Notes: generated by a model from the letters alone, not told the origin. Shown: positions 8,328 through 11,577, counted from the stretch's first letter. The stretch is DNA of 64,000 nt from an uncultured Gammaproteobacteria bacterium (GCA_964573135.1 CAZNIO010000006.1:1733-65732), one strand, 5' to 3'. Numbers and translations: made by a program.

Positions 8328-9548
8328 TTGAAAAAATTAGCAAAACGCACAGACCGAATACTGGCATCTACGCGCCATCCGAAAAGAAAAAAACTAAACT
8401 TTGAAGAATTCAGGGCAATGTTTTTCTATCTTCTTTTTGGTAACGTTACGCCGGTTAGTAGGATGATTTCTGGCTCTAAATTATTAAAATCGGGCCAAAA
8501 ACAATTAACTGAATCCGCTGCTGCTGCCCCTACCTCATCTGTTTTTCCACTTACTCCGCAAATTATTGATTTTTTGAGGGAAAAGGGACTGACGATCCGT
8601 AATACCGAACATGGCATTGCCAAGCGCATTATGTCGCTTGTGAAGTACGCTGGTACGGCTATAACGGATTCACATGAATCTGCTCCGTGGATCAAAATTT
8701 TGATAAAAATTATAATCACAGCGGATGGTCCGGAGCTTTACCTCCTTGAATATAACGACAAGGAGGACCAGAAAATGCCCCCTAGGTGCATTAAATTGGT
8801 CTGGGATGAGGGCTTTGAATCGATGTTTGGCGCTCCCCTTGTGGATAAAGTTCCGCGGAACAAAATTCCTCGCCCAAGAATCGGATGGGATGACGAAGCT
8901 ACATATGTTGATCTCGAGGACCTCGGTGATTTTACTGAGGAAAGACAGGAGCAACCCCCTCAACGCGCCTCAATAATATGCCCATTCAAAAAATTCTTCC
9001 CTTGGTGGAAGATTCTTATTTTGGTCATTCTCTTATACATCGGGATTGCGACAGTTATTAAAAGCAGTAGTGGAAACGCAGCTGCGGATATAATTGCTTT
9101 CTGGATGGCAATATTTGTACTCCTGGTTATTTTTAGCCTGTTTGCTGCTTCTTTATACGGCTTAATTGAGTGTTGTATAAAGAAAAAACGCCAAGAAACA
9201 TTGAATAAATTTGTCGCAGAAGCAGGGGGCGTTGAAATTGTGGAAGATGGCAATGAGTCTGCCACCAGTGATCATACGGCTCAAAGTACTGCACAAAAAA
9301 TAGGTAATGTTTGCCTAAGTGCGGGATGGTACGGATTATTGGCTGCGATGACTTTTGTAATCTGGGCCACAGCAGAAGAATTTTTAATTTTTAAGTCATG
9401 GGCTCCCTTATACGCCACGGCGATAATTGTTTTAACTGTTTGGCGTATAAGAGGAAAAGGTGGTAATTTGAAAAAAGCCTTTGGTAATTTTTGGATTAAT
9501 TGCTTATTTTTTATAGCAATTACCATCGGCTGGTTCATTTTTGGTTAA
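8328..9548 (+). CDS. hypothetical protein (406 aa): N-terminal soluble region plus four or five C-terminal transmembrane helices; no recognisable domain
   Basis: TTG start 8328 preceded by SD aaggaga at 8314-8320. Hydrophobic segments begin at about residue 235 (WWKILILVILLYIGIATVI, IIAFWMAIFVLLVIFSLF, and others). Apparent GC is higher than the neighbours. The start could be internal (MISGSK...). Confidence 0.55.
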   Translation: MKKLAKRTDRILASTRHPKRKKLNFEEFRAMFFYLLFGNVTPVSRMISGSKLLKSGQKQLTESAAAAPTSSVFPLTPQIIDFLREKGLTIRNTEHGIAKRIMSLVKYAGTAITDSHESAPWIKILIKIIITADGPELYLLEYNDKEDQKMPPRCIKLVWDEGFESMFGAPLVDKVPRNKIPRPRIGWDDEATYVDLEDLGDFTEERQEQPPQRASIICPFKKFFPWWKILILVILLYIGIATVIKSSSGNAAADIIAFWMAIFVLLVIFSLFAASLYGLIECCIKKKRQETLNKFVAEAGGVEIVEDGNESATSDHTAQSTAQKIGNVCLSAGWYGLLAAMTFVIWATAEEFLIFKSWAPLYATAIIVLTVWRIRGKGGNLKKAFGNFWINCLFFIAITIGWFIFG

Positions 9549-9560
9549 ATGCTAATTGAC

Positions 9561-9620
9561 TCCGCGAGTACCTGGTTATTCATTTATGCTCGCGGAAATA
9601 ACTTTTGAAAATTTTTTTTA
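9561..9620 (+). terminator. intrinsic terminator/attenuator hairpin plus T-run between cassette genes 1 and 2
   Basis: tccgcgag-N20-ctcgcgga stem at 9561-9596, followed by aataacttttgaaaatttttttta. Confidence 0.45.
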
Positions 9621-9630
9621 AGGAGATATA

Positions 9631-10257
9631 ATGGCTAAAGGAGTTAGTAATATAGGTAAAGGCGCTGCTGAGGGTTTAGCAAAAACCTTTATTGAAAAAC
9701 TGTTAGGGGGAGCTGCTAATAAGGGCGGAGAAATACTACTCGAAAAAATCAATAAGGCATTTGATGCAGCACCAAGAAAAATGCTGTTAGTACTGATCGC
9801 TAAATTGATTGATGCTAACGCTCAGACCAGCTTATATGCCAGGATAGATAGCGCCATTGAAGCTGGCAAGGACGATGCGCTGGCGAGTATATTATGCAAG
9901 GTCCTTGAATTGGACGATGAGTCCGCTATTTTGGCAGAGCTCACAAGATTGGGTAATCTTGGCGACAAGGCGTTTGATCGCGAATACGAGTTCGTCAAAA
10001 TCGCGAAAGTACAGCAAGTTGGCAAGCGCTTAAAAAATACGACTGATCGAGTCGTAGAAAAAAGTAAAGATAAATTGAAAATTATTGATCTTGAAGCGCA
10101 GACTGCTACGCGTAAGGCAATCAATAAAATTTATAAAATTGCCTTACGAATTAAAGCAGACAATGATACCATCGATTCTGAAGAAATATCTCAAGTTACC
10201 CTCAAGGCATCCCAGAAGCTTAATAACTGGGCTGGTAATTTTTTAAAAAATTCATAA
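9631..10257 (+). CDS. hypothetical soluble alpha-helical protein (208 aa), no recognisable domain
   Basis: ATG 9631 with SD aaggag 8 nt upstream. A/L/K/E-rich composition, no TM segments or motifs. Confidence 0.55.
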   Translation: MAKGVSNIGKGAAEGLAKTFIEKLLGGAANKGGEILLEKINKAFDAAPRKMLLVLIAKLIDANAQTSLYARIDSAIEAGKDDALASILCKVLELDDESAILAELTRLGNLGDKAFDREYEFVKIAKVQQVGKRLKNTTDRVVEKSKDKLKIIDLEAQTATRKAINKIYKIALRIKADNDTIDSEEISQVTLKASQKLNNWAGNFLKNS

Positions 10258-10287
10258 AAAAATACAAATGTAGAAGGAGACATAATC

Positions 10288-11577
10288 ATGATCATGATAT
10301 TTCAAATACTCGGTATAATCGTTGCGATTTTCATAGCGCTTTTTGGTCTTAGCCGTTTACCGGCTACTTGGCGCGCGGCGATTTTAAACACCATTGCCAC
10401 TATTTTCAAAGTGACACTTGGTGTAGTAATAAGAGTACTTAAAGCGCTGTATACCGCGCTTAAGGTGCTTGCGGTCCTATTAATTGTTTTATTTGTTGTT
10501 CATCTCATCGTATTAAATAGGGGTAACTCGAATGAGATAACAGCATTGTTTGCCTTTGATTTCGCTATCGGCATTGGACTAATGTCTGCTGCTAAAACCT
10601 TAAGCAAGTGGCTTAAGACTGATGGTAGCGCAACTAAGTCAATTATCCTGGTAGTTATTGGTTTGGCAACAATAACGTTAGTGGCCGCCAAAGGGCCAGA
10701 TTTTTATCAAGCTAACTCCTTTTGGATTTGGACAATAGTGATGACGCTATTTGTCTTAATGGCTATAGGGAATTATAAAGGAGTCGAAAATGACTGGCCG
10801 TTGTATATAATGGCTGCCCTTTATTTTATCCTCTTGGCTTCTTTTATCCCCAAGGGTCGCTGGATTGACGCCAATATAAAACAATGGCAGACAAACTCCG
10901 ATCGGGCCAGTCTGCCGAAGGAGATAGATTATCAACTCACCCTAGCTGTATTCGAGGAAAAATCTGTCGGGTACGTAAAAAAAGACAGCGTGGTAATGGT
11001 GAACAGTAAACCCGTGGATACGTTGGTCGTCTTCACTCCGGTGGATACTCTATGGTTTGCTGAGGGCGTAACTGCTGCAGTAAAAAATCACAAGGATAAA
11101 CCCGGCCAGGGTAGTAATGGGGTTGATATAATGCTGGAAGTACAGGCAAGGAATAAATTTGGTGACTATTACGGGACAAACGTCTATGTTCCTGGCCGTA
11201 AATTGGCTTTTATCAGCCCACTAGATGCTCCTAAATTTGCAGTAGCATCTGACTCATCCTACATTTCCATTAACTACAAATATACGCATGAGGTAACCAA
11301 CGTCAAACTGGTGCCAGAACTCGGGCCATCGAGACTTTCGATGAAAATTTCTCCCGACATGCGGGCCGCAAAAGATGTCCTCTTTGTTGAAACTGCTGGC
11401 ATCCAATACCAAACGATGCCAAGTGGTAATAATAACGTTGAGGGCGTAAGTCATCGGGATAGCACAACTGGACTTACGGTATATTGCAAGGATATGAATG
11501 GCGATGATATCGAAACAAAAACAAAAATATATAAATTAGAAAATGGAACGACCACCGTTTGGTGCGAGCGTCCATAA
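10288..11577 (+). CDS. hypothetical membrane protein (429 aa): five or six N-terminal TM helices plus a C-terminal roughly 240-aa beta-rich soluble domain; no recognisable domain
   Basis: ATG 10288 with SD gaaggaga. N-terminal hydrophobic helices (ILGIIVAIFIALFGL, VLAVLLIVLFVVHLIVL, and others). The C-terminal half is rich in T/V/Y/N/G. Confidence 0.55.
   Translation: MIMIFQILGIIVAIFIALFGLSRLPATWRAAILNTIATIFKVTLGVVIRVLKALYTALKVLAVLLIVLFVVHLIVLNRGNSNEITALFAFDFAIGIGLMSAAKTLSKWLKTDGSATKSIILVVIGLATITLVAAKGPDFYQANSFWIWTIVMTLFVLMAIGNYKGVENDWPLYIMAALYFILLASFIPKGRWIDANIKQWQTNSDRASLPKEIDYQLTLAVFEEKSVGYVKKDSVVMVNSKPVDTLVVFTPVDTLWFAEGVTAAVKNHKDKPGQGSNGVDIMLEVQARNKFGDYYGTNVYVPGRKLAFISPLDAPKFAVASDSSYISINYKYTHEVTNVKLVPELGPSRLSMKISPDMRAAKDVLFVETAGIQYQTMPSGNNNVEGVSHRDSTTGLTVYCKDMNGDDIETKTKIYKLENGTTTVWCERP

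Follow-up and report, generated by a model that had tools for sequence, protein, structure and literature searches.

A conserved leader RNA with two mutually exclusive folds precedes a rare membrane-protein operon and its convergent pilin-like gene

What do three adjacent genes without any recognisable domain encode, and what does the structured RNA ahead of them do? The genes in question occupy positions 8328-11577 on the plus strand of a 64,000-nt stretch of DNA (CAZNIO010000006.1:1733-65732, assembly GCA_964573135.1, deposited as an uncultured Gammaproteobacteria bacterium), which is referred to as the window throughout. The initial annotation, made from the sequence alone, proposed a horizontally acquired defence, abortive-infection or phage-derived module tied to a neighbouring HEPN-MNT toxin-antitoxin pair. 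Comparison with related loci points elsewhere. The operon belongs to a conserved gene neighbourhood of fixed order, which consists of a promoter, a leader RNA, one or more variable membrane proteins, a helical protein of ~210-225 amino acids (aa), a member of the gene-3 family and a convergent pilin-like gene, and its leader RNA is itself conserved and bistable. With a probability of roughly 0.5, the cassette is one arm of a conserved cell-envelope cluster found in a few lineages of the candidate phyla radiation (CPR, or Patescibacteria), in which the leader is an attenuator-type switch and the proteins form a platform for the pilin; the platform is the less secure part of this reading. CPR bacteria account for a large part of the diversity of bacteria, and they live attached to other cells; the molecules at this interface are mostly uncharacterised. 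The locus links a distinct Cys-rich pilin subgroup to a new membrane-protein family and a conserved switch-like RNA, and its analysis corrects a tempting "defence island" label that rested only on toxin-antitoxin adjacency. The operon and its promoter comprise the following features (TM, transmembrane).

8017-8045, plus strand: sigma-70-type promoter, TTGACA-17 nt-TATACT with an extended -10 TG, 11 of 12 consensus positions
8328-9548, plus strand: gene 1, TTG start, 406 aa; N-terminal ~225 aa predicted to be cytoplasmic, then about five TM helices (hydropathy)
9631-10257, plus strand: gene 2, 208 aa; no TM helix, predicted all-helical, K/E-rich
10288-11577, plus strand: gene 3, 429 aa; about seven TM segments and a beta-rich C-terminal part of ~240 aa

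Gene 3 provides the thread that connects the window to other genomes. An exhaustive HMMER search of 1.84 billion representative proteins retrieved eight distant relatives (26-33% identical in that search, E 1.5e-26 to 3.5e-5), one of them annotated as Candidatus Kuenenbacteria, so that the family amounts to nine clusters. Identity to gene 3 in alignment A1 is 18-29%. Once truncated gene calls are corrected, an architecture of ~410-440 aa is common to seven of the eight relatives, and the eighth (P0007) ends at a contig edge. Conservation is highest between TM5-7 and roughly residue 312; the distal C-terminus varies. In all eight loci the gene-3 relative is followed directly by a convergent PF18895-family gene, and the window has the same partner:

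11683-12228, minus strand: VirB2-like "T4SS_pilin" gene (T4SS, type IV secretion system), convergent with the operon and directly downstream of gene 3

The window's pilin-like protein scores 25.1 bits (E 1.9e-5) against PF18895, slightly short of the cut-off of 26.6 bits, and 30.9 bits (E 1.6e-7) against the NCBIfam model NF045849 (Mbov_0395 pilin-like), where the cut-off is 40. Among the related loci, which carry L numbers here, precomputed PF18895 matches reach E <= 1e-5 in L085, L086, L087, L092 and L096 and are weak in L089, L094 and L095. The protein consists of a signal peptide, a Cys-rich head (CxCxC...), a G/S linker, a DPL motif and a two-TM hairpin; its hydrophobic segments span residues 9-27, 110-128 and 149-167, and the hairpin with its basic loop is conserved in alignment A2. 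Identity to the window's protein in A2 is 39-48% for L086, L089, L092, L094, L095 and L096 and 27% for L085 (35-52% over all in BLAST local alignments), which makes the pilin-like proteins far better conserved than gene 3. The positive-inside rule and hydropathy would place the Cys-rich head outside the cell. The gene is single-copy in eight of the nine loci; in L096 (1059-1703) two pilin-like genes stand in tandem, resembling the VirB2 arrays reported in other CPR lineages.

The slot of gene 2 is likewise occupied wherever upstream DNA is present, by five full-length proteins and by C-terminal fragments in L089 and L092; the proteins of the relatives have 211-225 aa, are helical and carry no Pfam domain. 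The wider surroundings of the gene-3 relatives include rpsL-rpsG-fusA, a penicillin-binding protein (PBP), LGT, DsbA, glycosyltransferases, Wzy, DnaB, YbaB and RecR. The envelope-type members of this list (PBP, LGT, DsbA, family 2 glycosyltransferases (GT2) and Wzy) support an envelope reading, as does the glycan-biosynthesis setting of the window itself; in L094 and L095 the clusters border on genes for GT2 and Wzy. Published work fits this reading too: VirB2-like pilins are widespread in CPR and, when encoded within the T4SS cluster, essential in the cultured Saccharibacterium Southlakia epibionticum, the sole species that is genetically tractable. Both L094 (12039-12112) and L095 (7193-7266) have a tRNA gene shortly past the pilin-like gene.

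The second conserved component is the RNA. A promoter followed by the leader RNA, on the same strand, precedes the cluster in the window, L094, L086 and L095, which together represent three independent lineages. The intergenic regions 5' of the cluster are unusually long in the latter three loci (670-800 nt), and promoters equivalent to that of the window, with 11 of 12 consensus positions and the TG extension, stand directly 5' of the RNA in L094 (7809-7837) and L086 (7579-7607), where they are the only strong ones in the intergenic region. The elements of the RNA in the window are listed below; the last line gives two hairpins from minimum free energy (MFE) folds that have no counterpart in L094 or L086.

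8115-8247, plus strand: conserved bistable leader RNA, a core of ~130 nt between the promoter and gene 1
8115-8136, plus strand: 5' arm of helix P1 (S1)
8136-8145, plus strand: 10-nt palindrome GCGUAUACGC
8146-8154, plus strand: segment S2
8152-8159 paired with 8189-8196, plus strand: helix P2
8160-8188, plus strand: variable apical hairpin
8207-8227, plus strand: 3' arm of P1 (S3)
8212-8239, plus strand: terminator hairpin (S3:S4), followed by a U run at 8240-8247
8056-8078 and 8090-8113, plus strand: two small window-specific hairpins

A covariance model, R1, built solely from L086 and L095, recovers the element in the other loci. It matches the window at 8115-8229 on the plus strand with 36.7 bits (E 5.8e-9 over 701 nt; 10.4 bits on the minus strand) and L094 over the full model length with 22.8 bits (E 1.7e-5); both matches appear only with the speed filters off and are missed at default filters. 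Corresponding sequence blocks can be recognised on the 5' side (AAAGCGCGTATACGCCAGATCTGGAGA in the window, AAAGTGCGTATACGCCAGATCAGGAGA in L094) and on the 3' side (CTTACCCGCTTTACCC in the window, CTACCCGCTTTATTTACC in L094, ACTTACCCAGTCTACCCC in L086). The leader matches none of the 4227 Rfam families in any of the three lineages, and no conserved leader peptide was found on reading the leader sequences. A 16-mer of the RNA core also occurs in eight viral contigs, always in GC-rich coding sequence and without the rest of the motif, and these hits are attributed to chance.

One question is whether the element works as RNA at all. The palindrome is found at 8136-8145 in the window, at ~7901-7910 in L094 and at ~7678-7687 in L086, and it is kept while its letters change, as in GCGTATACGC versus GCAAATTTGC, with a 4-nt centre that is self-complementary in both. 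Such a perfect 10-bp palindrome, together with the equal folding of both strands and the presence of other repeated palindromic elements nearby in L086 and L095, would suit an element acting as DNA: the operator of a dimeric regulator, a site of recombination or a small mobile palindrome that moved along with the cluster. The plus-strand preference of R1 argues against this, as do the promoter and the U-run terminator, which in every lineage bound the element on that strand; moreover, it occurs once in the 64-kb window and nowhere else in the fetched loci. A DNA-level role is thus scarcely probable. For the RNA, the conservation of the palindrome hints at a dimeric partner, either an RNA-RNA kissing contact or a dimeric protein, beyond its part in a mini-hairpin.

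The leader can adopt helices that exclude one another: S1 pairs either with S2 or with S3, and S3 either with S1 or with S4. The S1:S2 pairing yields a 5' hairpin capped by a 3-bp mini-hairpin inside the palindrome. The alternative, S1:S3, is P1, a helix of 20-26 bp that encloses a conserved asymmetric internal loop, P2 and the variable apical hairpin. S3:S4 followed by the U run has the form of an intrinsic terminator in every lineage, and the long hairpin sequesters the 5' arm of this terminator through S3, which is common to both. Folding of the leader is far stronger than that of shuffled sequence, with z = -5.6 for the ~280-nt leader and z = -7.4 for 8046-8262, which bears out the structured leader described by the initial annotation.

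Both folds are supported by covariation. In hand-made, structure-fitted alignments, used because MAFFT/RNAalifold misaligned the 3' halves, the long hairpin has 90.8% of cells paired (76.4 ± 2.2% when shuffled, 31-55% when slid) and changes on both sides in 16 of 37 pairs, a result reached by none of 500 shuffles. For the 5' hairpin together with the terminator, 97.0% of cells are paired (shuffled 85.1 ± 2.4%, slid 24-50%) and 11 of 29 pairs show changes on both sides, again reached by none of 500 shuffles. In L086 the two folds are nearly iso-energetic (-49.5 versus -48.7 kcal/mol), and in L095 the terminator fold is the MFE structure.

These features suggest that the leader acts as a transcription attenuator. 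S1:S2 would form first, co-transcriptionally, and unless something promoted S1:S3, the S3:S4 hairpin would stop transcription at 8240-8247. A ligand, a protein, a second RNA or a physical signal would then act on the internal loop and the palindrome, choosing between read-through and termination; on this model, the site recognised is likely to consist of the palindrome and the conserved nucleotides of the internal loop. The products of gene 3 and of genes 2 and 1 might together make up a platform in the membrane for inserting, assembling or anchoring the pilin-like protein, or some surface structure built of it. In a bolder and rather unlikely version, a new CPR-specific riboswitch class or factor-sensing attenuator turns on a previously unrecognised pilin-assembly or surface apparatus upon a host-derived or envelope signal. 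If true, this would be an organelle for interaction with the host, regulated and not dependent on the canonical T4SS ATPases. The read-out of such an attenuator would be termination at a defined U run, which could reveal a signal sensed by CPR bacteria.

The leader might instead be a free-standing small RNA with its own promoter and terminator, similar to 6S RNA or serving as an RNA partner of the encoded proteins. Promoter and terminator-like end do bound a unit of ~175-200 nt in all lineages, and a long hairpin with an asymmetric conserved internal loop recalls 6S RNA; no 6S or other Rfam family matches at E <= 10, however, in the window, L094 or L086. The DNA between the RNA and the first gene offers further points for this possibility. 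In L086 and L095 this interval holds ~400 nt with palindromic repeat insertions, and a 15-mer, TTGAYAATTAAATAA, is common to the window (8265-8279) and L094 (8042-8056) between the RNA and the first gene, where it may serve as a second -35 region or within an expression platform. Sites matching 9-10 of 12 promoter positions lie at 8265-8304 in the window, between the RNA and gene 1, whereas L094 and L086 lack a good promoter between the RNA and the operon. The repeats themselves, at 7830-8130 in L086 and 1400-1700 in L095, are short and palindromic (e.g., GTCATTCCCGACCTGATCGGGAATCCAGAC and GTCATTGCCCGGCTTGACCGGGCAATCCAGAC); the same stretches contain a long CCCGCC...GGCGGG hairpin, and the repeats look like insertions of repetitive extragenic palindromic (REP) or miniature inverted-repeat transposable (MITE) type. 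Against a free-standing RNA, its orientation and position before a rare cluster are kept across two genomic contexts, and S1:S2 and S3:S4 covary as well as the long hairpin does. Covariation of both folds is expected of a switch and not of a static RNA. A small RNA of this kind is therefore unlikely, and the attenuator is preferred.

Several results weigh against the attenuator and platform as proposed. On the RNA side, the sample comprises three independent lineages only, and the alignments behind the covariation counts, kept gapless by N-padding, were fitted to the very structures being scored. The long hairpin is favoured over the terminator fold by ~20 kcal/mol in the window and in L094, and any switching in these two would therefore have to be kinetic. 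G-U pairs give no plus-strand preference, and weaker promoter-like sites lie between the leader and gene 1 in the window. On the protein side, an envelope or pilin-linked role for the products of genes 1-3 is suggested by gene neighbourhood. Gene 1 shows no similarity to the same-slot proteins of the other loci (z <= 2.3), where varied membrane and soluble proteins are found, none resembling it; with gene 1 lacking a relative, the triad as such is not conserved. Gene 2 resembles its same-slot counterparts weakly, if above chance (z 5.5 for L086, reached by none of 500 shuffles; z 4.3 for L094), and profile-profile comparison with hhalign was negative for homology in this slot. The AlphaFold2 models that the initial annotation had called for are of low confidence: gene 3, modelled from a nine-sequence alignment, reaches a predicted local distance difference test score (pLDDT) of 55.8, and gene 2, folded alone, gives a poor all-helical model with 42.6. 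Fold searches with the predicted structures found nothing significant. Finally, no VirB4-size ATPase is encoded in the 64 kb, and a pilus-like assembly would thus need machinery encoded elsewhere.

The anatomy of the operon is largely as first described. The three plus-strand open reading frames (ORFs), one with a TTG start, are all called as genes in public assemblies of the same strain. For gene 3 these differ in the start (10294 and 427 aa in JGI/Logan, 10288 and 429 aa in NCBI/ENA), and 10288 is favoured because it leaves a spacing of 8 nt to the AAGGAG site. The promoter close to consensus, the Shine-Dalgarno sites on all three ORFs and the clean terminator were likewise found, and the operon is indeed the sole plus-strand block in positions 1-20 kb of the window. 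Its remaining signals are as follows.

8314-8319, 9620-9625 and 10274-10279, plus strand: Shine-Dalgarno sites AAGGAG, 8, 5 and 8 nt 5' of the starts of genes 1, 2 and 3
11597-11625: operon terminator hairpin followed by a T run, between the convergent genes
~11631-11668: second terminator hairpin (A run, GACG...CGTC, T run), serving the pilin-like gene, from direct sequence reading

The tight spacing that had been noted holds for genes 2 and 3 (30 nt) and not for genes 1 and 2, which are separated by 82 nt. This spacer (9549-9632) contains a GC-rich hairpin, CTCCGCGAG...CTCGCGGAA, at ~9562-9598 and a promoter-like TTGAAA-16-TATAAT (11/12) at 9605-9632 that overlaps the start of gene 2; neither is common to the other loci. 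Genes 2 and 3 may have their own promoter or a processing site here. The topologies proposed at first are roughly right, with about five hydrophobic segments in gene 1, none in gene 2 and about seven in gene 3 ahead of C-terminal beta strands. Hydropathy and the positive-inside rule would put the N-terminal domain of gene 1 in the cytoplasm and the conserved juxtamembrane beta domain and variable distal C-terminus of gene 3 outside the cell. Gene 2 is presumably cytoplasmic.

Genes 1-3 are as devoid of recognisable motifs as had been stated, and their proteins are rare. Pfam and NCBIfam give nothing credible, phmmer against the PDB finds nothing at E <= 10, PHROGs nothing better than E 0.017, and genes 1 and 3 have no match in PADLOC-DB 2.0 at E <= 1. 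In a word-index search of 5.8 billion proteins, genes 1 and 3 retrieved only themselves and gene 2 nothing. Some marginal matches were set aside. Gene 2 hits Cas10_Id (E 1.5e-4, 18 bits, partial on a 964-position profile) and bAvd (E 0.02), both taken as noise, and the matches of three gene-3 family members to DUF4131 (the ComEC N-terminus) span no more than two TM helices and were judged compositional. L095 (8191-8568) carries, among glycosyltransferase genes and two genes from the pilin-like gene, a gene for a bAvd / 23S_rRNA_IVP four-helix bundle; proteins of the bAvd type are accessory in diversity-generating retroelements, and no reverse transcriptase was seen.

The partnership with a VirB2-like gene raises the possibility of a degenerate type IV secretion or conjugation system, of which the cluster would be a part, with gene 3 as a VirB6-like channel subunit, genes 1 and 2 as VirB8/VirB3-like accessory proteins and a VirB4 ATPase encoded elsewhere. 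In favour of this, the partner gene falls into the T4SS_pilin and Mycoplasma integrative and conjugative element (ICE) pilin-like families, and gene 3 has a polytopic topology as in VirB6. In a published CPR dataset, moreover, VirB2-like pilin genes occur in 1,948 assemblies and are near virB4 in only 1,135 of them. The profiles, by contrast, speak against such an origin: gene 3 and its eight relatives have no match to TrbL/VirB6 (PF04610), PrgH or related profiles at E <= 1, and no family member matches VirB8 or VirB3 at the same threshold. No gene of VirB4 or VirD4 size occurs within 10 kb in L086, L094 or L095, and the 64-kb window contains no VirB4-size candidate, every ORF of at least 594 aa being otherwise assigned or without a T4SS match. 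The gene-3 family is also far rarer than CPR T4SS components. A degenerate secretion system is improbable on this evidence, and an envelope cluster with its own membrane-protein family is preferred.

Downstream of the pilin-like gene, the neighbourhood has an optional member.

12274-12600, minus strand: 108-aa coiled-coil protein, downstream of the pilin-like gene

It has a same-position homologue in L089 (36% identity, E 3e-21) and is absent from L085, L094 and L095. Between this gene and metK, a 57-aa ORF (12616-12789, minus strand) carries two CxxC pairs (CDKC...CEKC) and looks like a zinc ribbon. On the other side of the operon stands the toxin-antitoxin pair, whose presence next door Pfam matches bear out.

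7510-7893, minus strand: HEPN (PF05168), E 1.8e-12
7196-7528, minus strand: MNT (PF01909), E 5.5e-12, overlapping HEPN at 7510-7528

With its overlapping genes and clear Pfam matches, the pair at 7196-7893 resembles the HEPN-MNT type II/VII toxin-antitoxin systems; in PADLOC, MNT alone matches PDC-S09 and PDC-M05. A functional link between the pair and the operon, as first proposed, is unsupported. HEPN-MNT does not belong to the conserved unit, because it is encoded on the other strand and none of the related loci has it: neither HEPN/MNT nor other recognised defence genes occur in any of the eight loci with gene-3 relatives, which are set among core genes. The pair is probably an incidental neighbour.

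Some observations do fit the proposal of three horizontally acquired genes that serve defence or abortive infection or derive from a phage. The proteins have hardly any relatives, the toxin-antitoxin pair is adjacent, and a block of the window is missing from the nearest fetched relative. This is L005, the Kerfeldbacteria metagenome-assembled genome CG08, closest by MetK (71% identity), in which gtrA, a further ORF, an epimerase gene, metK and an epimerase gene are contiguous (9986-12331) and metK and the epimerase gene adjacent. The window's block 3442-12789 (~9.4 kb), missing between these two genes, holds a 1144-aa protein, a 60-aa ORF, MNT, HEPN, the RNA, genes 1-3, the pilin-like gene and the 108- and 57-aa ORFs. 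It is a variable region and, given how distant the two genomes are and how ordinary the block is in composition, does not count as evidence of recent transfer. No integrase, tRNA or att-like direct repeat was found in the window or flanking the block, the 64 kb being free of tRNA genes.

Composition gives the defence proposal little to build on. GC is mildly raised (+1.0 to +1.8 standard deviations), at 41.2% for gene 1, 39.9% for gene 2 and 42.5% for gene 3 against a mean of 36.9% (standard deviation 3.1; 55 genes). Gene 3 is the highest in the window, and other genes reach 41.6-42.3%. The 45-50% put forward initially was overstated, since only single 200-bp windows reach 47-48%. Codon usage is no outlier either, with genes 1-3 ranking 12, 18 and 19 of 56 genes in synonymous usage. 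The initial annotation had itself named host-like GC and codon usage as a sign against its proposal, and both lie near those of the host. Homologues that are ubiquitous core CPR membrane proteins, which it had named as another such sign, were not found. The databases of defence and mobile elements add nothing in its favour: PADLOC yields the one weak partial match of gene 2 to Cas10_Id and PHROGs nothing credible. The three proteins have no tblastn match in 50,697 phage records, gene 3 has none in 72,556 plasmids, and a scan of IMG/VR with the pilin-like alignment as query was negative. A defence or phage origin is very improbable, and what stands of the first description is an undescribed, domain-less operon with a strong promoter and a structured leader.

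Taken as a whole, the window is a large region of glycan-biosynthesis genes, among them those for epimerases, GtrA, Wzy, NeuB, a carbamoyltransferase and GT2. Positions 20000-60000 are mostly one minus-strand surface-glycan region, which includes NeuB, the carbamoyltransferase, an aminotransferase, GT2, an ABC exporter and Wzy-TPR. Within the variable block, the 1144-aa protein (3442-6876, minus strand) is highly charged and E/K-rich, has no hydrophobic segment and adjoins the epimerase gene downstream; neither Pfam nor NCBIfam gives a match, and no fetched locus encodes a homologue. In L005, the gap between metK and the epimerase gene (11205-11375) contains a TTGACA motif followed by a hairpin of ~130 nt (z -3.8), with a G-rich 5' arm of repeated AGGGG/AGGGU, a C-rich 3' arm and a weak R1 match (15.6 bits, E 0.27, minus strand).

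Compared with known systems, the locus combines familiar kinds of parts. Like riboswitches and protein- or tRNA-dependent attenuators, the leader follows a promoter, has a P1 3' arm in common with a terminator, a competing 5' hairpin and a conserved internal loop closed by a long P1, and all of its helices covary; it differs in matching no Rfam family and in the unusual length of P1 (~20-26 bp). With 6S RNA it has in common a size of ~175-200 nt, a long irregular hairpin, a conserved asymmetric central loop and a strong promoter, whereas it lacks a match of the RF00013 type, the 3' side of its central loop is small (8-10 nt), it is tied to one rare operon rather than a housekeeping position, and its alternative helices include a terminator. 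The window's pilin-like gene resembles the VirB2-like pilins of Patescibacteria in its signal peptide, two-TM hairpin, short basic loop and matches to both profiles, albeit with scores below the cut-offs; unlike them, this subgroup has an extra Cys-rich N-terminal head, is not beside virB4 and invariably occurs together with the gene-3 family, for which no role in a T4SS has been described. VirB6 of Agrobacterium tumefaciens is required for pilin assembly. Gene 3, as a polytopic inner-membrane protein beside a VirB2-like gene, recalls VirB6, TrbL and PrgH, yet it has no sequence or profile similarity to them, and it would carry a C-terminal extracytoplasmic beta domain where VirB6 has a large central loop. 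Neither the gene-3 family, nor its pairing with a Cys-rich pilin subgroup away from virB4, nor the leader RNA was found in the libraries and literature searched. A pilin-associated envelope module and a terminator/antiterminator leader are thus known in kind, and what is new is the family of gene 3, the strictness with which it is paired with the pilin-like gene, and the leader RNA.

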